Shown here piece after piece: positions 544-57,562 of a stretch of DNA of 64,000 nt. A program made the translations under genes and the position numbers. The notes beneath the pieces are model-generated. The model did no database searches. It worked only from the letters and a program-made list of their open reading frames with translations, and was not told the origin of the DNA. Within the stretch, counting starts at the first letter, position 1. The number at the start of each line of letters is the position of its first letter. Origin of the DNA: Mustelus asterias (Eukaryota). The stretch spans positions 69,936,001 to 70,000,000 of the forward strand of contig NC_135804.1 of the NCBI RefSeq assembly GCF_964213995.1. Direction: 5' to 3'.

Positions 544-594
544 TTCGGGGGGGGGGGAGGGATCCTGAGTAGTGGGGCTGAAAGTGAGGGATGC

Positions 595-3402
595 ATGGAT
601 GGGGACTGCAATGCACGGCATTGCAGAGGTGGGGTGGAGCAGGGTTTGAAATGTGTATACTTCAATGCCAGGAGTATTCGCAATAAAGTGGGTGAACTTG
701 CAGCGTGGATCAGTACCTGGGACTTCGATGTTGTGGCTATTTCAGAGACATGGATAGAGCAGGGGCAGGAATGGATGCTGCAGGTCCCGGGGTTCAAATG
801 TTTTAGTCGAAGTAGGGAAGGAGGTAGAAGAGGGGGAGGGGTAGCATTATTGGTCAGAGATTGTATCACAGTGTCAGAGAGGAGGTTTGATGAGGACTTA
901 TCTGTTGAGGTAGTATGGGCGGAGATTAGAAATAGGAGAGGAGAGGTCACCCTGTTGGGAGTCTTTTATAGACCTCCTAAAAGTTCTAGAGAGGTTGAGG
1001 AAAGGATTGCGGAGTCAATCCTGCTTAGGAGTGAAAGTAATAGGGCAATTGTTATGGGGGATTTTAACTTGACTAATATTGACTGGAATTGTTATAGCTC
1101 TAGCTCGTTAGAGGGGTCAGTTTTTGTTCAAAGCGTGCAGGAAGGTTTTTTGACTCAGTATGTAGACAGGCCAACTAGAGGTGAGGCTATATTGGATCTG
1201 GTGCTGGGAAATGAGCCAGACCAGGTGCTAGACTTGGAAGTTGGTGTGCATTTTGGTGATAGTGACCACAATTCGGTTACGTTCACCTTAGTGATGGAAA
1301 GGGATAGGCATGAACCTCGGGCCAGTGGTTTTAGCTGGGGGAAGGGTAATTATGAGGCTATTAGGAGAGAATTAGGAAACATAGGTTGGACTAGGAGATT
1401 ACAGGGACTGGGAACGTCCGACATGTGGAGTTTTTTCAAGGAGCAGCTACTGCGAGTCTGTGATAGGTATGTCCCTGTCAGGCAAGGAGGAATTGGTAGG
1501 GCTAGGGAACCGTGGTGCACCAAAAAAGTTTCTTTGTTGGTTAAAAAGAAAAAGGAGGCTTATGTTCGGATGAGACGTGAGCACTCGGGTAGTGCACTAG
1601 AAAGCTTTAGATTGGCTAAGAGGGAGTTGAAGAGCGAGCTTAGAAGGGCTAAAAGGGGACATGAGAAGACTTTGGCGGATAGGGTTAAAGAGAATCCTAA
1701 GGCGTTCTATAGGTATGTCAAGAACAGAAGGTTGGTTAGGGCAAGTTTAGGGCCAGTTATAGATGGCAGAGGGAAGTTATGTGTGGAACCGGAGGAGATT
1801 GGTGAAGCATTGAACCAATATTTCTCTTCGGTGTTCACGCAAGGGGACATGAATATAGCTGAGGAGGACACTGGGTTGCAAGGGAGTAGAATAGACAGTA
1901 TTACAGTTGATAAGGAGGATGTGCAGGATATTCTGGAGGGTCTGAAAATAGATAAATCCCCTGGTCCGGATGGGATTTATCCAAGGATTCTCTGGGAGGC
2001 AAGAGAAGTGATTGCAGAGCCTCTGGCTCTGATCTTCAGGTCGTCGTTGGCCTCTGGTATAGTACCAGAAGATTGGAGGTTAGCGAATGTTGTCCCATTG
2101 TTTAAGAAGGGGAACAGAGACTTCCCCGGGAATTATAGACCGGTGAGTCTCACTTCTGTTGTCGGCAAGATGTTGGAAAAAATTATAAGGGATAGGATTT
2201 ATAGTTATTTGGAGAGTAATGAATTGATAGGTGATAGTCAGCATGGTTTTGTGGCAGGTAGGTCGTGCCTTACTAACCTTATTGAGTTTTTTGAGAAAGT
2301 GACCAAGGAGGTGGATGGGGGCAAGGCAGTGGACGTGGTATATATGGATTTTAGTAAGGTTCACCATGGTAGGCTTCTGCAGAAAATGCAGATGTATGGG
2401 ATTGGGGGTGATCTAGGAAATTGGATCAGGAATTGGCTAGCGGATAGGAAACAGAGGGTGGTGGTTGATAGTAAATATTCATCATGGAGTGCGGTTACAA
2501 GTGGTGTACCTCAGGGATCTGTTTTGGGGCCACTGCTGTTTGTAATATTTATTAATGATCTGGATGAGGGTATAGTTGGGTGGATTAGCAAATTTGCTGA
2601 TGACACCAAAGTCGGTGGTGTGGTAGACAGTGAGGAAGGGTGTCGTAGTTTGCAGGAAGACTTAGACAGGTTGCAAAGTTGGGCCGAGAGGTGGCGGATG
2701 GAGTTTAATGCGGAGAAGTGTGAGGTAATTCACTTTGGTAGGAATAACAGATGTGTTGAGTATAGGGCTAACGGGAGGACTTTGAATAGTGTGGAGGAGC
2801 AGAGGGATCTAGGTGTATGTGTGCATAGATCCCTGAAAGTTGGGAATCAAGTAGATAAGGTTGTTAAGAAGGCATATGGTGTCTTGGCGTTTATTGGTAG
2901 GGGGATTGAATTTAGGAGTCGTAGCGTTATGTTGCAACTGTACACAACTCTGGTGCGGCCGCACTTGGAGTACTGTGTGCAGTTCTGGTCCCCACATTAC
3001 AGGAAGGATGTGGAGGCTTTGGAGAGGGTGCAGAGGAGGTTTACCAGGATGTTGCCTGGTATGGAGGGGAGATCCTATGAGGAGAGGCTGAGGGATTTGG
3101 GATTGTTTTCGCTGGAAAGGCGGCGGCTAAGAGGGGATCTTATTGAAACATATAAGATGATTAGAGGTTTAGATAGGGTGGATAGTGATAGCCTTTTTCC
3201 TCTGATGGAGAAATCCAGCACGAGGGGGCATGGCTTTAAATTGAGGGGGGGTAGTTATAGAACCGATGTCAGGGGTAGGTTCTTTACCCAGAGGGTGGTG
3301 AGGGATTGGAATGCCCTGCCAGCATCAGTAGTAAATGCGCCTAGTTTGGGGGCGTTTAAGAGATCCGTAGATAGGTTCATGGACGAAAAGAAATTGGTTT
3401 AG
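595..3402 (+). CDS. CR1 ORF2: AP endonuclease + reverse transcriptase
   Basis: NARS, SETW, GGGV, YRPP, GDFN, SDH (APE); SPGPDG, NYRPVSL, QHGF, GVPQGSVLGP, FADD (RT). Motif A lacks AFDK. Confidence 0.95.
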   Translation: MDGDCNARHCRGGVEQGLKCVYFNARSIRNKVGELAAWISTWDFDVVAISETWIEQGQEWMLQVPGFKCFSRSREGGRRGGGVALLVRDCITVSERRFDEDLSVEVVWAEIRNRRGEVTLLGVFYRPPKSSREVEERIAESILLRSESNRAIVMGDFNLTNIDWNCYSSSSLEGSVFVQSVQEGFLTQYVDRPTRGEAILDLVLGNEPDQVLDLEVGVHFGDSDHNSVTFTLVMERDRHEPRASGFSWGKGNYEAIRRELGNIGWTRRLQGLGTSDMWSFFKEQLLRVCDRYVPVRQGGIGRAREPWCTKKVSLLVKKKKEAYVRMRREHSGSALESFRLAKRELKSELRRAKRGHEKTLADRVKENPKAFYRYVKNRRLVRASLGPVIDGRGKLCVEPEEIGEALNQYFSSVFTQGDMNIAEEDTGLQGSRIDSITVDKEDVQDILEGLKIDKSPGPDGIYPRILWEAREVIAEPLALIFRSSLASGIVPEDWRLANVVPLFKKGNRDFPGNYRPVSLTSVVGKMLEKIIRDRIYSYLESNELIGDSQHGFVAGRSCLTNLIEFFEKVTKEVDGGKAVDVVYMDFSKVHHGRLLQKMQMYGIGGDLGNWIRNWLADRKQRVVVDSKYSSWSAVTSGVPQGSVLGPLLFVIFINDLDEGIVGWISKFADDTKVGGVVDSEEGCRSLQEDLDRLQSWAERWRMEFNAEKCEVIHFGRNNRCVEYRANGRTLNSVEEQRDLGVCVHRSLKVGNQVDKVVKKAYGVLAFIGRGIEFRSRSVMLQLYTTLVRPHLEYCVQFWSPHYRKDVEALERVQRRFTRMLPGMEGRSYEERLRDLGLFSLERRRLRGDLIETYKMIRGLDRVDSDSLFPLMEKSSTRGHGFKLRGGSYRTDVRGRFFTQRVVRDWNALPASVVNAPSLGAFKRSVDRFMDEKKLV

Positions 3403-4694: not shown

Positions 4695-5214
4695 TTATTC
4701 TGCTGTTTGACTCATAACTGCTATTGGCCACTCGCCAATTGCTTCTTGTTCTAGCGCTAATTGCGCAGCCTTGTCTGCGGCTTGGTTCCCTTTGTATTTT
4801 AACCAGTCGGGGTTGTCCCTCTCTGGTTCCCTTTGGTGCGCTTTAATTTTTATTACTGCCGCTTCTAGGGGTTTTTCGCTAGCTTTTAGTAATGCCTCGA
4901 TCCTTTGTTGATGCTTAATAGGAGTTCCTCCCGTGGTTACAAACCCCCAGGCCGTCATATAATTCTAGGGCCTGTGTAAGTGCCACTAGTTCTGCTACTT
5001 GGGCAGATAAACTTCCGTCAATCCTTCCTGACTTTACCGTTTCCAATTTGTCAATTACTACTGCCCACCCTGTCCGGGGTGATCCCTCCACGTATTTACG
5101 TGAGCCATCTACAAAAAGGGTCTCCTCAACTATCGCTAAAGGTACGTCCTTCATCCTACGTTCTTCTGTATCCGCATCTACGTCCCCACAGTCATGTGGT
5201 TTCCCTGTATCCAA
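4695..5214 (-). pseudogene. Retroviral-type RNase H fragment (frameshifted, internally deleted)
   Basis: LFVDGS, SAQVAELVALTQAL, KIKAHQ, KGNQAADKAA; the YTDS block expected between the two frames is absent. Confidence 0.85.
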
Positions 5215-7036
5215 AATTCCTTCTGCTGGGTTATCTCCTGTATCTCTTACTATTATGACTGATTTGCTGGGGGAGGGGGGGGGCGGGGGTAGGAGGACGG
5301 CCTCCCATTTGGCCCTTCTGTAACTCCCTTCTCTGTTAAGTTTTGACTCTATATCTTAAGATTACTGCAAGTCTTATAACACAAATTTCCTGTTGCGGAT
5401 TAGATCTATGCGTTTCAGCAGAGAGGCGGAGATGTAAGTTCACTCAGCTGAACATAAATAAGTGATTAATCATCACTTCAAATACGCAGGAGTAATTCTT
5501 TCCATTTATCTTTTCATTGTCAATTCTATCAAAAATACATTTTGCAACAAAAGCCTGATCCAAAAAATCCATTTATGTTCATCACTATTAAAGATCTCTA
5601 CTAATTACGACGTTTACACTTTCTCACAGACTCTCCGGTTTAAGCGCAAGATGAGCGCATAATTAATTATTTCTCTTAAATGGTTAACTCTCCTTACAAC
5701 TCTTCAGCTGTAATGTAATACACAATTGTAAAATGTAATAGTTTATTAAACATTGATCTGCTATACCCTATTCCACCACATGTGGCTCTCGATCGCACAC
5801 TTTCACCCCCCTCTCTCTCTTTCCCTTGTCGAGAGACAGACTGAAACTCACAGACTGCTGGAGTTTTAACCCTTTACTCCCCTCTTAACTGTTCTGTTGT
5901 ACATGTTTTCCGATTGGTACCAGTTTATTCTTTCAACTGGGTCCAGTGTTTCCAGACACCTCTGCCTTGCATATCTATACAGGCACAGGTGTCTCCACTA
6001 ATGATAACCTTGTTGTAACATCTCCTGAGAGGTCGTGTACGGGGCGGGGGGGGGGGGGGGTCCCCAGAGGTTATAGGGCTGTGGGTTGTTTTCTAATGCC
6101 TGATTTCTTTTTTCCAATTCCCTGATTCTGATGTCTAGTTTCTTAATTTTTGCCATGTCCTCATTCTCTATTTCTCCAATTTTGGATTCTAAGTCCTTAA
6201 TTTTATCCTTGTCTTTATTCCACCTTTTGGTCAAATCCTTCACTTGTCCAATTACACCATCTAACTGGTGGACTAATAACACTCCCGTTTTTTCATCTTA
6301 CTCTTTTTCTTCTAAGGTCTGAGAAGCATCCCAGCCATCTTTTGGCATTTCTCTCATCAACGAATGCCTGTGGTTTCGATAAGGGAGCCTGGGATTCCCC
6401 ACTTCATTTCCTCATCTGTCAGCCTAAAGATTCCGACGTTCCCTCTCTCGGGTTTGCTTCCCTATACGGCCACAATTACTCTCTTAGTAACGTGTTTCTT
6501 CCCACCGTTTTTATACGCACGTACTCCCGGCCACCATTACCTTCTCTGTAATGTGTTTCTTCCACCGGAGTCCGGCTCAAAGTAGGAAGTGATTAATTCC
6601 TTCGCATGCTACATTACAACTGAACCGGTAGACTACCAACCCAACTTACATAACCTTAAATACACAAAGACAAAACTCTGCGCTCTTCACCTCTACAGAG
6701 ATTGATGTTAGCCGCCTTCTGCCACTTGTGCCTCACAAACCTAAGTGTCCTTGGTGTCTCTTTACCTCTTCAATACTTGACCATTTCCCTCTTAACGTCC
6801 GATCTAAGGTGAGCTCAGAGACAGGCACTACCTTGTCCTTGTCGATCAGCACAAGTCACAGTTACTTATCACTATCAATAGTTAATACTTATCACTATCC
6901 CTTATCACTATATCACAAATTCCCCAAATTTTACCCCAGAAAACTACACCGTTGACTCAGTCTGACTCCTACAGATTCGATGATCTCTATTCCGGCTTCC
7001 GATCGTGGCCACCGATCGGACGTACCAGTAATACAG

Positions 7037-8454: not shown

Positions 8455-10889
8455 CACATGGTTCCTTCCAAGGTTTAAATCCTTTCTTAAATTTCAATTT
8501 ACTTTCCAATTTTATTTAAACTCTTTATCAAACCTACTGTTGTAAAATCACAATTAGGGTAAGAACATTAAAACATTAAAGCAAACAAAACATCCACGCA
8601 ACCACTTTGTTTAAACACACACAGACGCACATGGAAGCTTCCAACAGTCATTCCACAGCACGTCCTTTTTCATTCAAACTGGGATGTAAGTAATACATTT
8701 AAAGAGAATACAGAACGTTGATTAAGACAGTCCCTTTTATTGTTCTTTCTTCCAAACTGTAAACAGAAGTAAATTCAAGAAATCTTACCACTTTAATCTT
8801 TAACAGTCTTAAAACTTCCTCCAGCCCCCCTGAGGCTAAATCGAAGTGCAAAGCACTGCACCCACTGCCTGCAACAAACACTCCACAGGAACAAACAGGC
8901 TTCAGCTCCTGTTCTCAATCTAATACAACAACAACCACCTACATTCGACAAGCTACCAGATCACACAGACACACTGAAATACAGAAACTAAGATCTCTCC
9001 TATCCACCTCCAGGTATGCCACTAGCCCATTCTAACAACTCATCGTAATCTTGGGACATTATCACTACCATTTTCAGGATGACCTGGTGAGCGCGGGAGA
9101 GTCCATCCTTAAAAGACTGGATGAACGCTCGATCCCCCGACCTGTGTTCCCTTGTCCTGAACACTCTTGGTATATCTGAAACAATTGTTCCCCGTATTCA
9201 GAAGCTCCTTCCCCTTTTAACTGTTTTGTTGTGGTAATTCTGCACCAGTTAGTGGGAGCATTCCCTAATACCCTCTGAATCTCTGCTTTAAACTGGGTGA
9301 AGGGTGCCTGTTGGGCATCTATCTCCTATGTTAGGGTGACTGCATGTGTCCACCGTCCCCCATTATAATCATGTGCTGGAGGAGCGGCGGGTCCACCTGC
9401 TACCTGCCTCCACTTATCCGCTGGACAGGCTGCCCTGAACTGCTTCTCCAGTTCCCTCACTTGGGATTCTAATTCTCTAATCCTTTCTTTATCTTCTCTC
9501 CACTTCTTCGTTGAGGCGACTACTTGCTCAATTAGACCAGCTAACTGATGTGTTAACATTACTCCTATCTTCTATGTCTCTCAGGTGTAATTGGTGTCCT
9601 ACCCAGATTGTGTCTAATTCTTCCCAGAATTTAGTGTTTGCACTTCTCGGTTGTAATTTACCCAGGGAAGCCATTATCTGTTGTCTCTTACCTGGGGTGA
9701 AGGGTTGATAAGTTGCCTTTGGTCACGCATTTGTACCCCTCGGGTTACGGGTGCTAAGTTGTGTTCTGGCGCTTCCCACTCCTCTGGGGGAGCGGTTGTT
9801 CCCTGCTGTGTGGACTCATAAGGAGGTAGAGGAACAGTTTCCCCTCTCCATTGCTTTTCTTCTAATACCTGGTTTTGCTTCTCCAGTTCCCTCACTTGGG
9901 ATTCTAATTCTCTAATCCTTTCTTTATCTTCTCTCCACTTCTTCGTTGAGGCGACTACTTGCTCAATTAGACCAGCTAACTGATGTGTTAACATTACTCC
10001 TATCTTCTATGTCTTGTTTCTCTTTCCTTTATCTATCCACTCTCTCTCTGCTGCTCTAAGGTGTGAGAAGTATCCCAGCCATCCTTTTGCATTCTCTTTA
10101 TTAACTCTTTCCTGTCTGTCATGTAAATTTCAATGAGGGATCCTGCAGGTCCCCTTTTAACTTCATTATCTGCCATTTTGCAGACTTCACTAACCCCGGC
10201 CACGATTACTCCCTAGTAAAGTGTGCTCTCTACCGTAGGGACTTCACTACCCCCCCCCCCCCCCCCCCCCCCCCCCGGCCACTATTACGACTCAAGCACC
10301 GTGTTTCACTACCGTTACAGGATTTCAAGTTATACTCACGGCTTCCACTATTACCACCTCGGCAATGTGCTTCTCCACCAGAGTCCGGTTTAGGTCAGAG
10401 TTGATCAAGCTCATTTTCCTCCCCGCTTTTCACAACATTGACAGTACAGTTCACAACTTTTCAAACTTTCATGCAATCAGATAATAACTCTGTGTTTGTT
10501 CGCCACTACAAAATTTGATGTTAACTAATCTCTACCACTTGTGCTTCACAATCCTAAGTGCCCTTGGTGTCTCTTGCCACACTTCAATCTCCTGACCTTC
10601 GCGTGGGAGATTCCTCCTCTCAACAACCGGCCTAAGGCAGGGTTTTGAGACAGGCACTACCTTGTCCTCTTTGTCGGTCAGCACAAGCAACAGTTACTTA
10701 TCACTATCAGCAGTTAGCATTTATCACTATATCATATACAACAATACTTATTACTACAAATACCCTTTAAATTTAACCCCTTAAGTTTAACCCCTTGAAA
10801 ACTGTACTCTTGACCTTGTCTGACTCTCACAGATTCAGTGATCTCTACCCCGGCTCCGATCGTGGCCAATCGATCTCACCAGTCATAGG

Positions 10890-13800: not shown

Positions 13801-14153
13801 CATCCAAGGAGTTTCTTAGTGAAGTGCGTCAAGTGCTGATAGCTCTTGATGCACTTTAGTAAGGAACTCCTTGGTGAAGCATAGATACTACACATGCACA
13901 CTCTTCCTCGTGAAGGTTCGGGTGTCACCAGGACATACTGAACACCTTGGGAAAATATAGCTTTCTGTTGAGAGACTATCTCCATGTCACATGTTCTGCT
14001 TTCAATGGCCTATTCTCATTCTTCCAGTCATGTTGATCTCTAAGATGAGGGCTGGGTGGAACTGGTTGTGCAGAAGCTTGAAGCCACCTTCATGCGAAAT
14101 CGCAGTGGTAACAAAGAATTTTAGCAAAAGCCAAAACAAAACATCCAGCAATT

Positions 14154-14317
14154 NNNNNNNNNNNNNNNNNNNNNNNNNNNNNNNNNNNNNNNNNNNNNNN
14201 NNNNNNNNNNNNNNNNNNNNNNNNNNNNNNNNNNNNNNNNNNNNNNNNNNNNNNNNNNNNNNNNNNNNNNNNNNNNNNNNNNNNNNNNNNNNNNNNNNNN
14301 NNNNNNNNNNNNNNNNN
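14154..14317. other. Assembly gap (N run)
   Basis: Run of N. Confidence 1.
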
Positions 14318-14325
14318 GTCAACCA

Positions 14326-16785
14326 TTGCTGCAGATCTGCGGCAAACGCCGCAGCCTGGAAACCAAGATAGAATCCATATTCTCAACTTGCGCTCAGGAC
14401 ACAGACCAGCTGCGAAACTCTGCCAAGCAGACGAGACAAAGGAACTACACTATCTACATGCACACCAAGAACAGGAAACTTGTGAGATTCGGCATCTCCA
14501 CCAGCAGCAACCAAGCCTTTCCCAGTACCACAGTAGAAAACAGTACCACTACAGGGAAGTCCATTGTCAACTTGTCGGACTACACACTTCAACCAGATGA
14601 AATCGAAGTTCTCAGCCGAGGGCTCAATTTTTGCCCCACCACCAAAATCGACCCCATCAGTCTCGCAGCAGACACAGAGGAATTCATCAGGCAAATGAGG
14701 CTGTGGGAGTTCTTCCACAAACCCCAAGAGGCCAACAGCGAACACAATGAGACAGCCAATGAACTGGAACAGCCGACAGAGAGATCCGCAGTGCATCCGA
14801 AGAGGAAAGAGTCAAATTGGACCCCTCCGGAAGGCTGCTGCCCTCGATTTGACATGTATGCCCAAGCCATCAGGAGGTGCGTCAACACCAAATTCATCAG
14901 CCGCACTCACAAGACAGCCCCGAACATCACCCAAGCACAACGCAATGCCATCCGCGCTCTCAAGACCAACCGCAACATTGTCATCAAACCAGCAGACAAA
15001 GGAGGAGGCATCGTCATACTGAACAGAACGGAATACTGCAAAGAAGTGTACCGACAACTGAACAACGAGGAACGCTACAGACAGTTACCTGCAGATCCGA
15101 CCAAAGAACACACCCATCAACTCAACACTCTGATCAAGACCTTTGATCTGGACCTTCAGAGCTCCCTCCATGTTCTCATCCCACGTACTCCCCACGTTGG
15201 AGATCTCTACTGCCTCCCAAAGATACACAAGGCAAACACACCTGACCGACCCATCGTATCGGGCAATGGGACCCTGTGCGAGAACCTCTCCGGCTATGTT
15301 GAGGGCATCCTGAAACCCATTGTACAAAGAACCCCCAGCTTTTGTCGCGACACTACGGACTTCCGACAGAAACTCAGCACACATGGAGCAGTTGAACCAG
15401 GAGCGCTCCTCGTCACAATGGATGTCTCGGCACTCTACACCAGCATCCCCCACGATGATGGCATTTCTGCAACTGCCTCCGTACTCAAGGCCGACAACTG
15501 CCAGTTTCCAGATGCAATTTTACAACTCATCCACTTCATCCTGGACCACAATGTCTTCACCTTCAACAACCAGTTCGTCATCCAGACACACGGAACAGCC
15601 ATGGGGACCAAATTCGCACCTCAATATGCCAACATTTTCATGCACAGGTTCGAACAAGACTTCTTCACTGCACAGGACCTCCAACCAATGCTGTACACTA
15701 GATACATCGATGACATTTTCTTCCTTTGGACTCATGGCGAACAATCACTGAAACAACTATATGGTGACATCAACAAGTTCCATCCCACCATCAGACTCAC
15801 CATGGACTACTCTCCAGAATCGGTTGCATTCTTGGACACACGCATCTCCATTAAGGACGGTCACCTCAGCACCTCACTGTACCGCAGGCCCACGGATAAC
15901 CTCACGATGCTCCACTTCTCCAGCTTCCACCCTAAACACGTTAAAGAAGCCATTCCCTATGGACAAGCCCTCGGTATACACAGGATCTGCTCGGATGAGG
16001 AGGATCGCAACAGACACCTCCAGACGCTGAAAGATGCCCTCATAAGAACAGGATATGGCGCTCGGCTCATTGATCGACAGTTCCGACATGCCACAGCGAA
16101 ATACCGCACCGACCTCCTCAGAAGACAAACACGGGACACGGTGGACAGAGTACCCTTCATCGTCCAGTACTTCCCCGGAGCGGAGAAGCTATGCCATCTC
16201 CTCCGGAACCTTCAACATGTAATTGGTGAAGACAAACATCTCACCAAGGCCATTCCCACACCCCCACTTCTTGCCTTCAAACAACCGCACAACCTCAAAC
16301 AGACCATTGTCCACAGCAAACTACCCAGCCTTCAGGAGAACAGTGACCACGACACCACACAACCCTGCCACAGCAACCGCTGCAAGACGTGCCGGATCAT
16401 CGACACGGATGCCATCATCTCAGATGAGAACACCATCCGCCAGGTACACGGTACATACTCTTGCAACTCGACCAACATTGTCTACCTGATACGCTGCAGG
16501 AAAGGATGTCCCGAGGCATGGTACATTGGGGAAACCATGCAGACACTACAACAACGGATGAATGAACACCACTCGACAATCACCAGGCAAGACTGTTCTC
16601 TTCCTGTTGGGGAGCACTTCAGCTGTCACGGGCATTCGGTCTCTGATATTTGGGTAAGCATTCTCCAAGGTGGCCTTCACAACACACGACAGCACAGAGT
16701 CACTGAGCAGAGACTGATAGCCAGGTTCCGCACACATGAGGACGGCCTCAACTGGGATCTTGGGTTCATGTCACACTATCTGTAA
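14326..16785 (+). CDS. Penelope-like RT / GIY-YIG endonuclease polyprotein (5' end lost in gap)
   Basis: KPADKGG, LPKIHK, MDVSALYTSIPH, GTAMG, RYIDD, PCHSNRCKTC linker, IVYLIRC...YIGET...RMNEH...E...GLN; 819 aa open. Confidence 0.9.
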   Translation: MLQICGKRRSLETKIESIFSTCAQDTDQLRNSAKQTRQRNYTIYMHTKNRKLVRFGISTSSNQAFPSTTVENSTTTGKSIVNLSDYTLQPDEIEVLSRGLNFCPTTKIDPISLAADTEEFIRQMRLWEFFHKPQEANSEHNETANELEQPTERSAVHPKRKESNWTPPEGCCPRFDMYAQAIRRCVNTKFISRTHKTAPNITQAQRNAIRALKTNRNIVIKPADKGGGIVILNRTEYCKEVYRQLNNEERYRQLPADPTKEHTHQLNTLIKTFDLDLQSSLHVLIPRTPHVGDLYCLPKIHKANTPDRPIVSGNGTLCENLSGYVEGILKPIVQRTPSFCRDTTDFRQKLSTHGAVEPGALLVTMDVSALYTSIPHDDGISATASVLKADNCQFPDAILQLIHFILDHNVFTFNNQFVIQTHGTAMGTKFAPQYANIFMHRFEQDFFTAQDLQPMLYTRYIDDIFFLWTHGEQSLKQLYGDINKFHPTIRLTMDYSPESVAFLDTRISIKDGHLSTSLYRRPTDNLTMLHFSSFHPKHVKEAIPYGQALGIHRICSDEEDRNRHLQTLKDALIRTGYGARLIDRQFRHATAKYRTDLLRRQTRDTVDRVPFIVQYFPGAEKLCHLLRNLQHVIGEDKHLTKAIPTPPLLAFKQPHNLKQTIVHSKLPSLQENSDHDTTQPCHSNRCKTCRIIDTDAIISDENTIRQVHGTYSCNSTNIVYLIRCRKGCPEAWYIGETMQTLQQRMNEHHSTITRQDCSLPVGEHFSCHGHSVSDIWVSILQGGLHNTRQHRVTEQRLIARFRTHEDGLNWDLGFMSHYL

Positions 16786-20405: not shown

Positions 20406-21236
20406 GCGGATGCTTCTATGCTTGAATATGCAAATCATTAAACTCCTCAGCAGGCCAAATCGCCCTTCCCCCAAACGGAACAACAACAGAGGCGTGAAAT
20501 ACGTGAAAGGTCGGCATTACTGATCGTATTTTGCTAGTAGAATCATGGACCATTAATCGGACACTTTTTTGCAACATGGTTACTTTCATGAATTATTAAA
20601 TTTAAAAGTGACACAGAGCAACAACATGAACAGCCAGATATTGCGCTCCATATGATTTATGTGGGGTTTGCAGCAGTCTCCCATTCTATAGCGGGAGACC
20701 TGGAGTTTATCACTGAATTGATCGGTTACTGTACTTGAAATCTTTCAGAACTTCTACATTATGGTTCGAAATATTAACCCGCCTCATCTAAAACAGTGTA
20801 GGGGGTACTGAGGGGCCGTTTATTACAGTTCTCACAATTCCTCTCGAATCAGCCGATGATGAACGCAAATTTTGCACAAATTGGTAATGGGCGAAATTAT
20901 TCATTTAGTTTTTCAGAAAGACTGCCAGCAGAAAACTCCTGGTAAACAGCTCAGCAGAGAGCCTCTGGGAAATTGTACGCAAAGAGCCACATTTCATCAC
21001 AAGTTTCCTCAAAGCAGGAGGTCCTGAGGGGAGGTTGGTCCAACTGAATGTAAACTGTGTCCTCTGTGGCTTTTTCTGGCAAATGTACTAAAGTTTTAAA
21101 AATTTCACACAACGTATATGTTGTCGGCTCAAAGACAGGATGTTGCGCCTTCATTATGACGTTTTACATTTTCCGCCTTCTTTCAAACAAGCAGTCATTT
21201 CATGGACTGTCTCTCTGCTTGATCAAATTGTTCAGA

Positions 21237-21291
21237 ATGTTGGCCAGTGTGGCAATTCCTTGCATTACTGTTCTCGGAATCATTTTCACAG
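21237..21291 (+). CDS. Gene A exon 1: signal peptide MLASVAIPCITVLGIIFT
   Basis: ATG 21237, hydrophobic leader, phase-1 donor G|gtattt; homologous to gene B leader (VLGIIFT vs VLGIIYE). Confidence 0.8.
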
Positions 21292-21444
21292 GTATTTGCT
21301 CCTATTATGCTTTGTTTTCTCATTCAATCGCGTAGTTACGTATCTTTGTTTTGATGCAGCATGTTTCATTGTCCTTTACAAATATTATCTGAACTCCTTT
21401 CCCTCACTCTTTCCTATTGTTACATTTTTACATTTTTCCCATAG

Positions 21445-21765
21445 GTCCCGGTGGAACTTCAGTCAGAGTCACTCAGCTCCCTGAGAGAGTGAACACAAAC
21501 ACCGGTACGAACATTTCCTTTCATTGCTCGCTTCCCTTCTTTCAAGACGGCCCACGTGTGAATGTAAACTGGTGGAAAAAGGGTGACAATCAATATCTAA
21601 GGTCAGGACAAAATGACAGAATAATAACTGGTTTCAAGACTAAATTCAGCGGCTTTCTTCGGATAATTAATGTAAATGTGCAGGACACAGGAGTATACTA
21701 TTGCATTGTCACGCATCTAAACAAAACAGCTGGAAATGGAACTGGATCTAATTTAACAGTATGGG
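21445..21765 (+). CDS. Gene A exon 2: Ig V-set domain with joined J-like G strand
   Basis: cccatag| acceptor; VTQ, FHC, WWK, DTGVYYC, GNGTGSNLTV; phase 1/1, 321 nt, donor gtacgt. Confidence 0.92.
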
Positions 21766-22617
21766 GTACGTATAAAAAAATGTAAATAAGATCCATCTGA
21801 CTGCAATATTTCACACTTCGAAACATAGATTTTGATTTAAAGAATTCAACTTTTTAATTAATTTCAATGATCAATATGTATACATTCCAATTGCACTGGT
21901 GATTGCTGCATGCTGGTGTATGTTGCAATGTTTCAAAAATAATGATAAAGCCGAACATTTTCTGCTAAATGTTTGATCCCGACGTATATTCAACAAACAA
22001 TTGAAGTTAAAATTTCCATATTGGATAAGTTGCATACCTCGGCATTAATAGACAGTGTTGCGGACCCGATAAAGAGAACGCACATTTCTTATCCTATTTC
22101 GTGGTATAATTCGCCTACGTTGATTGCGGAGGGTTGTGTGCTTCTATTAGGGCCAGCTGTTCCACTGGTTGATGGTCTATTTCTTAAGGTCATATTTTTA
22201 ACGGTTGAATTACACACCGTCTAATTTGAACCAAACCCTCCTCATCTTTCACCCATCATTTTAGGCTCCAGCAAGCGCGAAATCATCCGGGTTCTTGGTG
22301 CAAAGTCTAACTAACTTGAGAAATTAAACTTCCCAGATAGTTTTTAGATTTAATGGGATGAAATTCACCCGCAGTGGAACCGCAAAATTAGCGAACATCC
22401 CAAATTACACCGTGAGCAATGTTCTTCCGCATTAGAATAGACGATTGGGCGAGATTTTTATTGGGTACAAACTCGCTTTCTCTCGTGTGTTTCTTTTTTT
22501 TTATTTGTCCCCATGAAAACTGTTTAAATTACAAGCAAAATACCCGCGACACGTGAGAATGTCGTCAGATTTAATTGTCGCTACAGATAGTGCAATCTAA
22601 ATAACTATTCTCCCATT

Positions 22618-22760
22618 GCTGTTCCTTCGTCAGATGGAGTGGAAATATGGAGCCAGATTTCCACTCCATCTGACGAAGGAGCAGCGCTCCGAAAACTAGT
22701 GGCGTTTGCTACCAAATAAACCTGTTGGGCTTTAACCTGGTGTTGTTAGACTCCTTACTA
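22618..22760 (+). mobile_element. Short PLE pLTR fragment with hammerhead core and 29-bp inverted arm
   Basis: CTGACGAAGGAGCAGCGCTCCGAAA...CAAATAAACCTGTT matches 17011-17090; arms 22618-22646 / 22657-22685 with one mismatch. Confidence 0.85.
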
Positions 22761-23113
22761 CGATTTTGACGAGCAGGGGAGCTATCCACAGTTATCCCCA
22801 AGTTATCTTCGGTGTCCAGGCCAATATTTCTCCTTCATCAACATCACACAAGCATACGAACTGATCATGATCACGTTTGATTTGATTTGATTTATTATTG
22901 TCACATGTATGAGCATGCAGTGAAAAGTATTGTTTCTTGCGTGCACGCTGCTGTTTCTGGAAATTTCCTGTTCACAGATTTGCTGCCAAATGTTCATCGT
23001 TACAAAAGTGACAGCATTTGAATTGTTCTGCATTGATTGCTGGGCGTTTGAGACGTCTGGTGGTGTGAAACGTGTTATATAACTACCAGTCTTTATATTT
23101 TTTATTGTTCTAG

Positions 23114-23425
23114 TTCCACCAACCCCATTGAAAATTAAACCTCAGCAACTTGAAACGGATCCAGCTGCACCGCTGACTCTTCTGTGCACCACATCTCCTT
23201 TTTCCCCGAAGAATATCAGTTTCACTTGGTATAAGGATGGCACTATAACTAAAATAGGGATCAATACCATCATTAAACCCAGCACCAATGGACTCTATGA
23301 CGCTTCCAGCCAGTTGCAAGAGGCGCAGCCTGCCCGGTCCCTAACTGTTTATACCTGTCTGGTCTTTCACAGTGCGCTCCAAATTCCAGCCATAACCACT
23401 CACATTGTCACCTACCCAAACACAG
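23114..23425 (+). CDS. Gene A exon 3: Ig C1-set domain
   Basis: ttctag| acceptor; LTLLC..FSPKNISFTWYK, NGLYDASSQL, YTCLVFHSAL; phase 1/1, 312 nt, donor gtaaga. Confidence 0.92.
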
Positions 23426-24459
23426 GTAAGATTTCAGATATAATCATATAAATTTACAGTTTTGCAAAACGTTATTTCACTCAGCCTTTCGGTGCAGCCT
23501 CTTTGAAAGAGCTGTCAGATCTATTACGCCGACAGCAGCATTTCTCCCACAACCGGCAAATCAGAATCATTAGCCTTTACATCCAATTGCCTTTTGGAAA
23601 TAGCTATATAAATTATTTCCAGCAAAATTTCAGGCAGTACGTTCTAAATCTTCACAATCTCGGGTTGGAAAATAATTCTCCCCACAGCCCCTTTATTATT
23701 TGCCAATGGTTTTCGATTCAGAACTATTCATGAGACCCACTTTTTGCAGAACACATTTTCCCCTAATTGATAAAATACACCTGTCATAGTTTTGCAAACT
23801 TTCCGTTCGATCTCACCTTAACATTTTCCTATTCTGTTGAAAAGAACCATAGTTCCAAATCTCGCCACGTAGCCGAAGGCCCTCATCCTTGTTAAACCTG
23901 GAAAACATCCTTTGTTATTCTCTCCGAGACATTGGCATTATTCCTAATATGAATTGTACACTGTACATTTGTATGACTTCCATGTATACAATGGTTCACT
24001 CGCACGGCTAATTATCCGAAAATTTTCACTGATCAACATTTCAACTTCCCAACCACCATTTGAAGATCTATAGGTATCTCAGAATTTACATTGCCTGAGA
24101 TTATCTACGTTGATTTAAGCAAAATGCACACTTCATAATTATTTGCATTAAATTGCACTTGCCAGTTGTGACCACTTTCCCTGTTCTATGAAGTGCTGAA
24201 GTCTGCTGCTATCGTCATAATAGTGACCAATGTTGTAGGATTTATAATCTTCAAATTGTACTCCCATATCATATAAAGAAATAGTCCTAATGTTGAACCC
24301 AGATCCAGTCAAAAACAACAACTTACCACTGCTCTCTACTACCTATAATTTAGCCAATAATGTATCTAAAGTGCCACCGTTCATCAAATCCCAAGTGGTT
24401 ATTTAAACATAATAAAAGCACCCCTCGACATTTTTATTTTGGTTCATAATACTTATTTT

Positions 24460-28217: not shown

Positions 28218-28328
28218 GCGATCAGAGCACCAATTTCTTATTGATTTCTGCATCGGCAGGAGGCGGGTTCGTTCTCCTGATGTTGGGTCTCATTATTGTG
28301 ACGCATTGTGTCACAAAGAAAAATAATG
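28218..28328 (+). CDS. Gene A exon 4: transmembrane (uncharged)
   Basis: cttgcag| acceptor; DQSTNFLLISASAGGGFVLLMLGLIIVTHCVTKKNN; phase 1/1, donor gtaaga. Confidence 0.85.
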
Positions 28329-29979: not shown

Positions 29980-30023
29980 GTATGCAGAAAGATGGTGAAA
30001 GATGTCATTATCTGGAACAGCAG
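29980..30023 (+). CDS. Gene A exon 5: short cytoplasmic exon GMQKDGERCHYLEQQ
   Basis: ttcctag| acceptor, CAG|gtatgt donor; 44 nt converts phase 1 to phase 0 as the last exon requires. Confidence 0.7.
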
Positions 30024-36810: not shown

Positions 36811-37649
36811 TGTTGGAGACCAGGGCAGAAACTCCAAGGTATATTGTAAATTTAGCCTAGACCCCAACTTTTTGTGATTTGGCAATAGTGGGAATACAAG
36901 GTGTTCCACTGCAGGTCTGATAGCTTTTATGAAAACAAGCTTTATTTAACAAGATCGTTAAAATATGACAAAAAGAATGAACATAACTTTTAACAGTTGA
37001 AATACTTAACCATGATAAAATATAAATCTGAAGTATTTTTTATTACTTCCAATTTTAGCAACAACCACAAATATGTATTTTTTCTTCAGAATCAGTTAGC
37101 AAGGCACAGAGGCTTAAGTGAATTCCCAATGCTCCAGCTTTTTAATCCCTCTGGTCAGAGATACAGAGAGAGATACACGTCTTTGATTCTCAGATAGCAG
37201 CCTCCAGAGGAAAATCTGTCTTCACACAGCAGAACTCCAATGAGCGAGAGTGAGAAAACACCTCTTGCCTATTTCAGAACTCTGGAGAGAGATACCTTCA
37301 ATTTCTGAAAACAGAGAGAGGGCAAAAGAACAACTGCTGTTTTCAAATTCAAACTGCAACTGCCTTCTTTATCCTTTCTGTAAGCCTTGCCCTATCCACT
37401 CCACTTGTCAATTAACATGATGAAACACTACTCTGAAACCACAGGTAACACATCAAAGAACATCAACAATGCATTAGCCCAGATTAAAACAAGTGCTCCA
37501 ATAATTAGAAGCAATTAACCTTATGCAGTATCAGCAAGTGGGCTGTGAATTGTGAATAGTTGGCATCGTAATTAGAGTTGAAGTATAAAACAGTCCTTTC
37601 AGAAGAAACATGACACAAATACATTTCTTAAAGGCACAGTATCGTCACG
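36811..37649 (-). mobile_element. Solo LTR with 4-bp target-site duplication (AGAC)
   Basis: TGTTGG...GTCACG (CA mutated to CG) flanked by AGAC at 36807-36810 and 37650-37653; minus-strand AATAAA ~36940. Confidence 0.6.
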
Positions 37650-38189
37650 AGACTCGGTCCACCCTCTGGGTACTGGTGCCGGAGGGATGGGACTCTGCCG
37701 GGATGCAATGGAAAGTAGTGATTTCATTTAATTCTGGATTCTGGGCATTCTGCAGAGGGAGTACATGACAAGAGGTTTTTTTTAAATTGTCTTTCAGTTC
37801 ATTCAGGGACCTGTCGAAATGTTGCCACCTTATGCTGCACCAGATACGACCAAATCCCAAAAAACTCCAAGACATCAAGAATAGGCACCATACATCCAGG
37901 TAGGATCGAGCAAAGACGCGGAATGCGTAATTAACAAGTAGTGTATGGGAAAATACATTTAATACTGCTTTGCTACTTCTGTTTGCGTTAGCACTAATTC
38001 TGAGACACTCCCGCTATTATGTCAGTTATAGCTCCGTTTGGCTTCAGAGCCACAAGATTGTAGGATATAGCCTACTCAGGAGACTTGAGAGTAAAGTATA
38101 ATTTGGCACTCCTGTGCATTACTGAGGGAAGTCTGCATTACCTGAAGTACCGTATTTCAAAGGAGACGTTAGACTGAGACTCTAGTTAT

Positions 38190-38625
38190 CTAGATTTGGG
38201 GCAGATTAGGCCTATACTCCCTTCAATTTAGAAGAATGAGATGGGGATCTAATTGAGGTGTACAAGTTGCTAAAGGACATCGATACGGTCGAAGTGGAGA
38301 GGATGTTTCCTCTTGTACGGCAATCTAGAACACGACGTCATAGTTTGAGGACAATGGGTAGCAGATTTAAAACAGAGACGAGGAGAAATTACGGGAGTCT
38401 GTGAAATTCACCACTCAAGATTTTAATGGGATGCTGGGACATTGACTAAGTTAAAGGAAGAAGTGGACAGCTTTTTAATTCGTAATGGTTTGAAGGGTTA
38501 TGGTGAACAGGCAGGAAAGTAAATTTTGAGGCCGAGATGAGATCAGCCGTGACCATATTAAAGGTGGAGCAGGCTCGAGGGCCCGAATTGCATATCCCTG
38601 CTCTTAGTTCATGATTCTTATGTAT
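38190..38625 (+). mobile_element. Decayed CR1 3' fragment
   Basis: RRMRWDLIEVYK-type sequence and tail. Confidence 0.7.
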
Positions 38626-38932
38626 GATTCATATGACTCAATGGCATTATTTCGAAGAAGAGCAGGGACGTTATCCTCTGTGTCTTAGTCAATGCCTTTG
38701 TTCCCCATCACTAAACAAATTATTAAGAATATATTGCGATTTGTAGGATCTTGCTCTGAACAGATTGGCTGCTGTGTTTCTCAAGTAACAACAGTGGCTG
38801 ACCGCACCATAACAAGCGTTTGAATGACAGCAAAACACGTCTCCGGGTCGCGAAATGCATTTTTTTCTATTCTAATAACTTACAATGAAGTAAAATTGGA
38901 ACTAATTATATTCCCAATCATTGATCTCACAG

Positions 38933-39100
38933 ACCAAGCAAAGACTACCCAATAATAAGCTGACGTATGCTGCTCTAGATATGATAGGGTCAAAGAAAGC
39001 AGCAAAGCCAAATCATAAGGATAAAAGCACGGAATATGCTGAGCTAAAGATGGAAAAACAAAGAGCAGGAGTTATCTACATCGAACCGAAAGCCACCTGA
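38933..39100 (+). CDS. Gene A exon 6: cytoplasmic tail with ITIM/ITSM-like motifs, stop codon
   Basis: ctcacag| phase 0; TKQRLPNNKLTYAALDMIGSKKAAKPNHKDKSTEYAELKMEKQRAGVIYIEPKAT*. Confidence 0.85.
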   Translation, partial: TKQRLPNNKLTYAALDMIGSKKAAKPNHKDKSTEYAELKMEKQRAGVIYIEPKAT

Positions 39101-39662
39101 TAATGGTGTCCAGTGCCTAACGTATGTTAGTTATGTATATATCTAAGGACAAGCCACTTACCATGACATCGAAAATCGACAAAGTAATAACAACTGTTCG
39201 GGGGAAAAGTGCAGGGTTCCATTTTAATAACAGGCGGCCTGGAACCACAAGCATTAATTCAGAAGTGGTGGCTACCCGTCACTGCTTTAAGAAGCTGTGG
39301 ATGAAATGGATTGTAAAACCTGAAATTTTGCTTGAACCGGCCACAGAACTCCGAGACCCAACATCTGATTAGTGTTGGCATTTGTATTTGGTATTTGCTG
39401 TTTATGTTGTTTGAGGTTTGTGCAGCTTAGGAAAGGGGTATGATTTAGCGCTCTTTCTGCGCTGATAAACCAGAGCCCGAAGATCTCGGAGAAACCAATA
39501 ACCGGGTTACTTGAAAATTGGCACGAACAGCAATCCCTGGGGACAGATATAAATCCTCCTTGGACAGTAGCACAAAACAGATGGTAAGCATAGGCAACAG
39601 GTTTTCGATTCTAATTACGTCCGGATTTAAGGATGGGATAGCATTCAAAGGAAACGTAATAC

Positions 39663-46618: not shown

Positions 46619-49154
46619 CAGTGCTGGATTTAGACTTGGTGAGGCCCGAAGTTATATAAAGATTGGAGGCCCCTTGTTAAAAAGTTACACCAAAAGGTCT
46701 CACAAAGGTGCGTACCAAAACAAGTCTCTTTACCTGTGAAAATGACCTTTCTCCTGAACAATTTGTTACCATCAGGCATAAGAATAGTTGTAATATTGCT
46801 TCCACATTAGGGAAAACTAAATGACCCTTGTCTTGGAAGATGATTTGATACAGATCATTGTGGCAAATTTGTTATTTTCCTGGATAATTCTGTTTGACAT
46901 AAGCATGGGAGTGCTTCAGTTCCCCCGTAAGGTGAATATCAACATCGTTTGGATACTCTTTCATCAAAGTGTCTACTGCTTCACGCAACTGTGCCTCTGA
47001 AGCTTCTAAATCAACTAAAAATGAAATTTTGTTTGCAGCATAATTGTAGGCTGTTGCTCTTCTTCTCAAGTTTGCTTCAAGGACATCGATTATAGGAATG
47101 AAGGATTTCACTCAAAATCTGTCTCTTGGAGACAGCTCTTCATCAGCATCAGGTGCAGCTCCTTCGGAGGCTTGTTTTTTTTTCCTCACCCTCCTCCCTT
47201 TCTCTGCACACTTGTAATCTACATCAGGCAGTTTGGATTTAGCTTCTTGTTCAATATCATCACTGTTTTCTCGAATATTTTTCACAAAGTGGGAAAGTGA
47301 TGTGTACAGATTCGCACATGCGGTAAGTGCAATCTGTGGATCCTGGAGAGCCTTGCTGGTTTTGTGAAACTCCTCCAGCAAACGAGTCCAAAGGTGTAGC
47401 ATAAAAACAAACTCCAGTTTCTCCATTTTTTTCCAGAAGAGTACCAGCTTGTCTTCCTGTCTCACCTTTTTCATTCTCATTAGTATGGAGATGACTTAGA
47501 GCATCGATGATTGATCTGTAACTCTCATTTATGGTAGACACAGCTTTGGCATGTGCATCCCACCTAGTGTCGGACAGATACTTAACATACTTTGGCACAC
47601 TGGAGTCTGCATTCAAGAATGATAACAACACAGCCCACCTTTTTTGTAGAAGATGAAAAAAAGTGTATATTTCTTGCACAACAGCAAAAAGGTTTACTGC
47701 ATCTAAACAGCAATCTACTGTAGCACGGCCAACAAGATTTAGTGAATGTCCGGCACAGGGAATATACATGGCATGCTTGTTTTTCTCTAGAATTCTTTGC
47801 TGCATTCCTTTGTATTTACCAGCCATATTTGCTGCATTATCATATGACTGTCCTCGGCACTTACTGAAATCAACTTTGCAGACTTTACTTAGATAGTCCA
47901 CTACCATACCCGCCATACTTTCACCACTGTGATTTTCCAACTCTGGGAAAGTTAGAAAGCATTCAACAGGTAAACCATCATCAGGTGATACATATCTTAC
48001 TATAACATTTAGTTGATCCACGTGGGAAAGATCTGGTGTCGAGTCCACAGACAAACTGAAGTAGCCTGCTTTTCTCAAATCATCCAAAACTGATTCTCTT
48101 ACTCTATTACTCATAAGCTGAATAAGTTCATCACATATTGTCTTAGATGAATATGAAGGAGACCCAGATCCTCTGTTTCCATATTGTTTTATGTGGTTGG
48201 AAAGAAATGGATCAAACTTAGCAAATAATTCTAACAGGCCAAGGTAGTTGCCATTATTTGGTGATCCAAAAGTTTCATTGTCTCCCCTAAAAGCTAGCCC
48301 ACGTTCTGCTAATGTGCATATCACTGCAACAACACGCTCAAGCACATGTCTCCAGTACTGTTGTTCTGTTTTTATTTGTGCTGCTAGTCTTGAGTCTAAG
48401 GTTGAACCACACTTTCTTGTCAAGTATGTCAGCAAAGCTGTTCTATGCTCTTCAGAGTTTTCATGACATTTAACTGCAATGGGATTTCACCAGTCAGAAA
48501 ACCCACCAGAAGCTAGTGCTGCAGTTGATGTTGAATAGAGCTTGCTGACAAAGCAGTAAACACAGCGAGTTGTTGGGGAGTACACAAGCCATTCCCGATC
48601 GGATATTTCACCATTAAATTTTCTGGACTGAAAATGACCTTTTGAACAATATCTATCTTGATTTTTGAATGGCCACTTTGAGTTTTCAAATGGGCCGTTC
48701 CAGCGTTGACACTCTGAAGGATCCTTAAGGATCCAATATGAGAGTTCATCCTCGGTTAAGACACCCCATTGACCTACAACATTGAGTTTCGTGAATTTTG
48801 TTGTTTCAGCTGTGGATGTCGGCTCTGCAACGTTCACATTTGCATCACTTCCAGTGCTTTCCTCAGCTGAGATTCCAGACTCTGTTGCCTCAGTAGCAGA
48901 GGCACTAGGCTGTGGTTGTTTGGACTTTGCTGATCACCTTGGGTTTGTGGATCCTTATCTGTTTCTGGAGTAAAGTAACTGTCAACTTTTGGTACTTTTT
49001 TGAGTTGCTCTTCAAGCTGGTGCTTTCTTTTCTTTTCTGGTATCCACTCTTAAATGCTCTCTTCATTGTAAACCTTCTGAAATTTTGTGGGGCCCCTGCG
49101 GATTGTGAGGCCCTAAGCTGTAGCTTGTTTAGCTTATGCCTAAATCCGGCACTG
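46619..49154 (-). mobile_element. hAT DNA transposon (ZMYM1/DUF4371-like transposase), decayed
   Basis: TIRs CAGTG(C)(T/C)GGATTTAG at both ends; 8-bp TSD cctccggc/cctcttgc (6/8); inserted in an L2-like fragment. Confidence 0.85.
46700..49066 (-). pseudogene. hAT transposase, frameshifted
   Basis: WLVYS..VYCF, LAFRG, GNYLGLLEL, VDSTPD, GQSYDNAANM, PCAGHSLNL, TRW across several frames. Confidence 0.85.
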
Positions 49155-54117: not shown

Positions 54118-54163
54118 ATGTCTGCATGTCAATGCGTATGGGTCCTGGGAATTATTTACGAAG
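54118..54163 (+). CDS. Gene B exon 1: signal peptide MSACQCVWVLGIIYE
   Basis: ATG 54118, phase-1 donor G|gtattt as in gene A. Confidence 0.75.
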
Positions 54164-54432: not shown

Positions 54433-54744
54433 TTGCATCCACCTCGGTGTCGCAATCGCCTGAAAGCACCATTCTGATGGCAGGTTCAGACATTACCTTC
54501 CACTGCACAGCGAACTCTGTCCAGCTTCACTCAAATGTGGATGTTTATTGGTGGAAACTTGGCGATGAAACCTTATTAGAACCGAATTCTGATGGCAGAA
54601 AGCGATTCTTTCCTTTTAAAAGCGGAGCGACTTCTTTCCAGATCCTGAATGTCCGTGTCTCCGACTCCGGATCCTATTACTGCGGAGTGCGAGACACAGG
54701 CAGCAAGATACTCAATGGAACTGGATCCAAACTTGTTGTGCACG
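54433..54744 (+). CDS. Gene B exon 2: Ig V-set domain with joined J-like G strand
   Basis: ttttatag| acceptor; VSQSP, FHC, YWWK, DSGSYYC, NGTGSKLVV; phase 1/1, 312 nt, donor gtaaga. Confidence 0.92.
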
Positions 54745-56484: not shown

Positions 56485-56793
56485 TTTCCCCAGAACCCAT
56501 AAGACTGATCCCCAAGGTTTCCCGTACCAACTCATCTACTCGAACACTTGTGTGTGAAACGGCTGAGTTCTACCCAGAGTCTGTCACCTTCATTTGGTAT
56601 AAAAACGACAGCAACATTGTGACTGGGATCAGCACCATTCAAACGGTGAACGCAGAGGGGGAATATGAAGCTTCCAGTACTTTGGAAATGGAAGATCCAG
56701 CTCAGAGCGGTATTGTGTATACCTGTGTGGTGTCTCACCTCACACTGCAGTATCCAATCACGGCTGTTTACTTGGACTCCATTTCTAATTCAG
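56485..56793 (+). CDS. Gene B exon 3: Ig C1-set domain
   Basis: ccacag| acceptor; TLVCETAEFYPESVTFIWYK, GEYEASSTL, YTCVVSHLTL; phase 1/1, 309 nt. Confidence 0.92.
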
Positions 56794-57448: not shown

Positions 57449-57562
57449 ATCCTGGGCACACTACCATTTATCTACAGATTTCTAAATATGCAGGAGCTGT
57501 ATTGATATTTCTAGCCCTGAGCGCTTTCATTATGAAGAGCGACCAACTCCGTAACTGTAATG
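57449..57562 (+). CDS. Gene B exon 4: transmembrane with Lys
   Basis: ttcacag| acceptor; DPGHTTIYLQISKYAGAVLIFLALSAFIMKSDQLRNCN; donor G|gtaagg; aligns with gene A TM exon. Confidence 0.85.

Follow-up and report, generated by a model that had tools for sequence, protein, structure and literature searches.

The two genes described here are real, well-formed members of a chondrichthyan family of paired VJ-C1 receptors. They are located in the window (the whole stretch of 64,000 nucleotides of Mustelus asterias that was analysed) and belong to a clustered, non-rearranging family of about 57 VJ-C1 genes which, judging from the sequences, probably encode paired innate immune receptors. Gene 1 is predicted to act as the brake and gene 2 as the accelerator of such a pair. 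Few innate receptor families have been described in cartilaginous fish, and a family of several dozen genes, present from chimaeras to sharks, provides candidate sensors of self and non-self. It also shows the V-C1 module in germline receptors at the base of the jawed vertebrates. The genome that carries the window is denoted G000 and its contigs C4, C7, C8 and so on; both genes are on C4.

Exon structure and the J-like end of the V exon

Gene 1 consists of seven exons, all with canonical GT-AG ends (Table 1). The interval 21445..23425, singled out in the initial annotation as a V-J exon followed by a C1 domain, corresponds exactly to the start of the VJ exon and the end of the C1 exon of this gene. 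In the VJ exon the F-strand YYC and the J-like GNGTGSNLTV are read in a single frame and the compact V domain ends in GNGTGSNLTVW; exon mapping thus agrees with the earlier statement that both genes carry the F strand and a J-like G strand within one exon. In gene 2 the lysine is located at the start of the transmembrane segment, at the outer end of the helix. A tail exon of gene 2 was searched for and not found.

Table 1. Exons assigned to gene 1 and gene 2, in positions of the window
Feature	Position	Strand	Basis
Gene 1 leader exon (split leader, phase 1)	21237..21291	+	ATG, GT donor, match to homologue N-terminus
Gene 1 single VJ-like exon (AG..GT, phase 1)	21445..21765	+	Pfam V-set; splice sites
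Gene 1 C1-set exon	23114..23425	+	Pfam C1-set; splice sites
Gene 1 transmembrane exon, uncharged	28218..28328	+	Hydrophobicity scan, tblastn
Gene 1 cytoplasmic exon 1 (phase 1 to 0)	29980..30023	+	tblastn with P0042, 93%; splice sites
Gene 1 cytoplasmic exon 2 (phase 0-0; Tyr motif degenerate; TAG in frame at 37882)	37798..37899	+	
Gene 1 last exon: ITIM (LTYAAL), ITSM-type motif (TEYAEL), stop	38933..39100	+	
Gene 2 leader exon	54118..54163	+	tblastn with P0068, 87%
Gene 2 single VJ-like exon, ends NGTGSKLVVH	54433..54744	+	Pfam V-set
Gene 2 C1-set exon	56485..56793	+	Pfam C1-set
Gene 2 transmembrane exon, Lys at the column of Arg in other members	57449..57562	+	

The first domains score 35.4 bits (gene 1) and 36.4 bits (gene 2) with the Pfam V-set model (cut-off 26), and the generic Ig_3 model lies slightly above it (36.5 and 42, respectively). 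The second domains were proposed to be of the C1 type and this was borne out: the C1-set scores are 37.2 and 50.5 bits (cut-off 21) and the C2-set models of Pfam remain below their cut-off in both genes, so that a C2- or I-set second domain, one of the two outcomes named beforehand as counting against the genes, is not what is observed.

The second cytoplasmic exon of gene 1 contains an in-frame stop. The same TAG recurs in DNA contigs of runs X2/X3, possibly from the source sample, while a low-depth contig of X4 and the paralogue at C4:68.6 Mb have a C at this position (Gln in the paralogue). DNA contigs aligned to 21200-23500 and 37600-39300 contain no splice joints and carry no information on expression. 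Since the exon is of phase 0-0, its skipping keeps the frame and leads to a product of 336 residues, and the predicted full-length inhibitory protein can be made from gene 1 only if the stop-bearing exon is skipped. The middle tail exon is absent from one homologue model (P0008 as compared to P0009). Gene 1, with a stop in one tail exon, may be decaying. In its V-C1 intron a 33-nt hairpin (22618-22685) is part of a very high-copy repeat.

No heptamer-spacer-nonamer signal was found from the V exon through the end of the C1 exon in either gene, as the initial annotation had claimed, and the same scan recovers RSS at loci of this genome that do rearrange, those of IgM, IgNAR and Ig-kappa (none was found in six further control stretches, which contain C exons or joined V exons only). 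The sole CACAGTG within 21445..23425 is at position 23368, inside the C1 coding sequence, and 13 copies are observed in the whole window against 9.8 expected. The exon map, the Pfam scores and the RSS scan together support a non-rearranging VJ-C1 gene with an antigen-receptor-like ectodomain.

The J-like motif of both genes is a G-x-G that lacks the F/W found in a true J. The same holds for the family as a whole: among 61 V matches the donor was resolved in 48 (several of the remainder are mis-anchored), and F/W-G-x-G is present in none of these 48 exons while G-x-G is present in 33. The length of the FG loop is nearly fixed: in 37 of the 48, the stretch between the F-strand Cys and the donor measures 21 residues. 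The V domains are also short, their Cys-Cys spacing being 54-60 (median 59, 29 domains) as compared to 62-66 in SIRP and 61-74 in Ig and UrIg. To call the exon germline-joined would imply a past RAG event. There is no sign of such an event, and "never split" fits better.

Structure prediction had been suggested as a check. The V domain model has a pLDDT of 89 and clear C' and C'' strands are absent from it. A VIA structural search with this model returned ties (Z 12.4-14.6) among I-set domains (including NCAM), VNAR, CD79b and Ig/TCR V domains. SIRP is not among the 50 matches listed, which excludes nothing. The full-length model of P0002 is poor (pLDDT 60) and its Foldseek list consists of antibody chains, with Fab light chains first; the Atlas look-up of P0002 gave generic Ig clusters. 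The position of these light chains, together with the Ig lambda-like names of some RefSeq models, would be expected if the two genes were germline-joined Ig light chains or other RAG-processed Ig genes. This candidate is refuted by the membrane and ITIM-bearing tail exons which follow the C1 exon, and we regard it as next to impossible. A light chain has either RSS or a joined F/W-G-x-G J and is a secreted V-C chain; no RSS was found in the two genes, none of the 48 family exons has F/W-G-x-G, and membrane and tail exons are present. FGxG does occur at the true IgL loci of this genome, which are located on C13 and C8. A clade of the family V with joined IgL is rejected (AU test, p=0.002), so nesting within germline-joined light chains, the other outcome named earlier as counting against the genes, does not occur.

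A clustered family in cartilaginous fish

The V exon search of the genome gave 58 matches, 57 of them on C4. There, two groups of 28 occupy 58.8-60.0 Mb and 67.7-70.0 Mb, and a single match is at 54.66 Mb. The C1 exon search gave 149 matches, 57 of which are on C4, including the best 56. A same-strand C1 is present within 15 kb for 54 of the 57 C4 V exons, with one C1 per V. We thus count at least about 57 V-C1 genes in two C4 clusters, broken copies included. Family loci show stops, frameshifts and a block duplicate at 93-97% identity: about ten genes are repeated in the same order 1.36 Mb apart (C4:68.0-68.7 and 69.4-70.0 Mb), alignment of the window to the first copy gives 93-97% and several lesions are in the second copy. 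The repeat is either a recent block duplication or two haplotypes placed in tandem. Immediately beyond the 3' end of the window, another gene that is close to gene 1 has its V exon split by about 1.3 kb (L059:4953-5201, L060:1213-1503), and its C1 was not found in 28 kb of downstream sequence.

A profile search (E<=1e-10) identified 57 homologues, all of them chondrichthyan (sharks, rays and a chimaera). A HMMER search added further members, and all 13 divergent ones that were looked up are chondrichthyan; below them come proteins of several domains, among them Ig and SIRP-like ones, whose domain scores are far lower. Automatic RefSeq names of the members are mostly SIRP-like, with others being tapasin-related, Ig lambda-like or NCR3LG1-like. 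A literature search found no paper describing a chondrichthyan paired VJ-C1 family, which does not establish its absence from print; the main texts of PMC3964593 and PMC6795676, in the parts available, hold nothing relevant.

The family has the features of paired receptors, namely similar ectodomains, either ITIM tails or charged transmembrane segments, and gene clustering. An ITIM or ITSM is present in 2 of the 16 family proteins with Arg or Lys in the membrane segment and in 45 of the 66 without (Fisher p=1e-4), a count over 82 proteins with a membrane segment in which related and partly truncated automatic models are treated as independent; an earlier, cruder charge rule gave p=0.06 for the same contrast. 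In this genome, 14 of the 30 membrane exons found are charged. As far as sequence can tell, charged members that mostly lack ITIMs are the signature of a paired receptor family.

Mammalian paired receptors serve as the model for the steps proposed here. By analogy with them, the compact V domain would bind a ligand on the surface of cells, with a self protein as the likeliest candidate. The ITIM/ITSM pair of gene 1 would be phosphorylated by Src kinases and would recruit SHP-1/SHP-2. Charged members such as gene 2 would pair with an ITAM adaptor, probably of the FcR-gamma or CD3-zeta type because it is the outer end of the helix that holds their basic residue. Pathogen decoys might be countered by activating copies, which would lead to birth and death of genes. 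Against an accelerator role of gene 2 stand its unlocated tail, the presence of Lys in place of Arg, and the absence of charge at the Lys column in P0043 and P0068, the database homologues closest to it.

Phylogeny and comparison with known receptors

Trees were built from 69 V and 88 C1 domains (about 110-115 columns; 19 loci of this genome sampled) without TCR, NITR and PRARP. Only SIRP and IgNAR carry database names in these trees, while the labels UrIg, NCR3, B7H6, MHC, tapasin, IgM and IgL were assigned by us from characteristic motifs; the UrIg label on this genome follows the description in the part of PMC12227049 available. From chimaera to shark, the family forms one clade in both the V tree (97/92) and the C1 tree (100/99). 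The trees make it a clade of its own and fix no sister group for it. The C1 tree rejects nothing.

The most frequent automatic name suggests that the family is the SIRP orthologue of cartilaginous fish, whose inhibitory members would read CD47 or a similar self marker. Features shared with SIRP-alpha/beta of sarcopterygians are an ectodomain of J-like V plus C1-set, absence of rearrangement, clustered genes, paired inhibitory and charged forms and, at the level of the family, a four-tyrosine tail with similar spacing (about 23/14/23 as compared to 24-25/17/24-26 in SIRP-alpha), gene 1 itself keeping only the last pair of tyrosine motifs. The tail profile of the family scores SIRP tails at a median of 41.9 bits, against 19.7 when non-motif residues are shuffled. 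SIRP-alpha is also the third sequence match in a PDB search with the family profile, a clade of the C1 domains with either SIRP C1 is not rejected (p=0.42) and no nearer SIRP candidate was seen in this genome. However, the reverse tail test gave a median of 19.9 bits, with an unrelated-looking turtle tail at 20.9, and the tail resemblance possibly arose by convergence on SHP binding. The tail motifs of SIRPA lie in one exon; those of the family are spread over two. The architecture differs as well, SIRP being V-C1-C1 while in the family the transmembrane segment directly follows a single C1. The family V is shorter, and its union with SIRP V is rejected by the AU test (p=0.005, and p=0.014 under a mixture model run on 50 of the 69 V rows). 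A search of this genome with coelacanth SIRP gave generic C1 domains as best matches, none of these being on C4. NSFL1C flanks SIRP; the SEP-domain genes of this genome, among which NSFL1C is weakly resolved, are on C20 and C7 and none is on C4. Taking both sides together, we consider SIRP orthology rather unlikely.

Coelacanth and lungfish SIRP-like proteins (P0141, P0283 and P0139) are V-C1-C1 and group with the amniote SIRP domains. They predate the range of mammals, birds and lizards stated in PMC9652883, a 2022 review which, in the part available, states that the origins of SIRP remain unknown.

The NITRs of ray-finned fish are likewise a large cluster of VJ-exon receptors, mostly with ITIM and some with a charged transmembrane segment, but they have an I-type second domain, which carries six cysteines and a J of its own, in contrast to the C1-set domain with two cysteines of the present family (PMC2442602, in part). 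Their flanking genes, in the accessible parts of PMC2442602 and 10.1101/2021.06.11.448072, are MAP4K2/MEN1, FGFRL1 or RUNX1/DONSON, which differ from the C4 neighbours; NITRs are here set apart by this published description. Judged by sequence, the family seems to work like SIRP or NITR, yet it does not qualify as a member of either.

UrIg and UrIg2 of elasmobranchs share the split leader, the single VJ exon, C1 domains and the absence of RSS with the family. They differ in having 3-11 C1 domains and a long V that groups with Ig, in being located in the MHC or Ig/TCR complex, and in forming no large paired family (PMC12227049, as described in the part available). These likenesses bear on the suggestion that gene 1 and gene 2 are close relics of the VJ-C1 gene into which the RAG transposon inserted. 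A split leader, a single VJ exon and a C1 exon are what is proposed for the precursor, and the rejection of a clade of the family V with Ig and UrIg is marginal (p=0.057 and 0.041). UrIg2 is the top sequence match in the PDB, although its score is the sum over several C domains. The family V nevertheless falls outside, while UrIg-type V joins Ig V (99/95 and 100/98); it is shorter and lacks clear C' and C'' strands and F/W-G-x-G. C4 is moreover apart from the MHC and Ig contigs, and possible paralogy with the TCR-alpha/delta region would speak for the relic. On balance such a relic is very doubtful. The special bearing on the origin of antigen receptors, which the initial annotation attached to these genes, is not sustained for members of a large ITIM/charged-transmembrane family whose V lies outside the Ig and UrIg clade. 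These results temper the idea that every VJ-C1 gene is a relic of an antigen receptor.

NCR3/NKp30 has a single VJ exon and a GNGT-type G strand and is multigenic in sharks, but it has no C1, its shark V is on C8 with MHC genes, and its clade with the family V is weakly rejected (p=0.03). PRARP and other tetrapod VJ-C1 genes have the same non-rearranging layout and differ in their reported linkage to MHC or MHC-paralogous regions (PMC10751288, in the part available; they are known here by description only).

In the mixture tree the family V is joined to B7H6-like V and turtle multi-V domains (98/92), possibly as a result of long branches. This grouping, the V-C1 layout, the NCR3LG1-like or tapasin-related names of some models and the NCAM I-set domains among the best structural ties would fit ligands or adhesion molecules related to B7-H6/tapasin, as opposed to leukocyte receptors. 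The dichotomy of ITIM and charged members speaks against it, and the B7H6-like genes of this genome (our label) are elsewhere, on C9, and have a longer V (Cys-Cys 68-73). We hold this explanation to be highly improbable.

The turtle proteins (P0142, P0178 and P0179) are built of compact VJ domains in tandem, in some cases followed by an ITIM tail, and have automatic names only. They are the nearest non-family V by profile score. Their matches to the C4 family are about as weak as those to the NCR3-type V on C8.

Chromosomal location and other elements of the window

Linkage to MHC-paralogous or TCR/IgL regions had been proposed as a check, and C4 is not one of the contigs with MHC or Ig loci. 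C8 carries genes of the MHC, NCR3 and UrIg types, C71 carries IgM and IgNAR, and IgL is on C13 and C8. Profiles of the TCR-alpha constant domain and of the CD47 membrane domain matched nothing in G000, but no positive control worked for either and both results are uninformative. The neighbours of the family on C4 are a single-copy CNOT1 at 64.8 Mb, between the two clusters, and an NDRG gene that precedes the first cluster by 0.2 Mb; the contig also has a membrane-type MMP at 57.5 Mb, MMP2 at 45.3 Mb and five classical cadherins. From known sequences and by elimination, we take the NDRG gene to be NDRG4 and the membrane-type MMP to be MMP15, and from the human map we assume the region to be the counterpart of human 16q12-21. 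Paralogues of the neighbour genes are on C7 and C20, consistent with a 2R set; the other NDRG copies of this genome are on unplaced contigs. Human 16q, chromosome 20 (SIRP locus) and 14q11 (TCR-alpha/delta, NDRG2, MMP14 and PSMB5) are presumably 2R sister segments.

The C4 region and those of SIRP and TCR-alpha/delta are likely 2R paralogues, and an indirect link to antigen receptors by this route is possible. The map position thus yields a testable 2R hypothesis that ties the family to SIRP and TCR-alpha/delta. Its furthest form, in which the SIRPs, the paired family of sharks and the RAG-invaded antigen-receptor complex all descend from one pre-duplication VJ-C1 locus, we judge quite unlikely. 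If true, it would move the cradle of antigen receptors off the proto-MHC, or add to the proto-MHC, from which current papers derive the receptor complex (PMC12227049; PMC10751288, both in the parts available).

At C16:64.41-64.44 Mb (L089, L090) there are at least two genes that we label UrIg-like. The protein P0152 is of the form V-C1-C1-TM; its G strand reads WCGCG, and in the tree its V joins the UrIg2-type V (97/85). The contig is separate from C8 with its UrIg-type gene and from C71 with IgM/IgNAR, and this may be a third UrIg locus.

Other elements noted in the window are of transposon or viral type. An open frame of 952 residues (544-3402, +) with endonuclease and reverse transcriptase is a LINE, and further LINE fragments occur throughout. 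The reverse transcriptase frame at 14125-16785 (+) has a GIY-YIG-like end by eye and is Penelope-like, with a related copy near L061. Broken retrovirus-like fragments with a weak RNase H match and PPPY-type gag-like stretches are present at 4915-6300 and 9674-10006 (-), and a DUF4371 frame at 47260-48933 (-) is a hAT-like transposase remnant.
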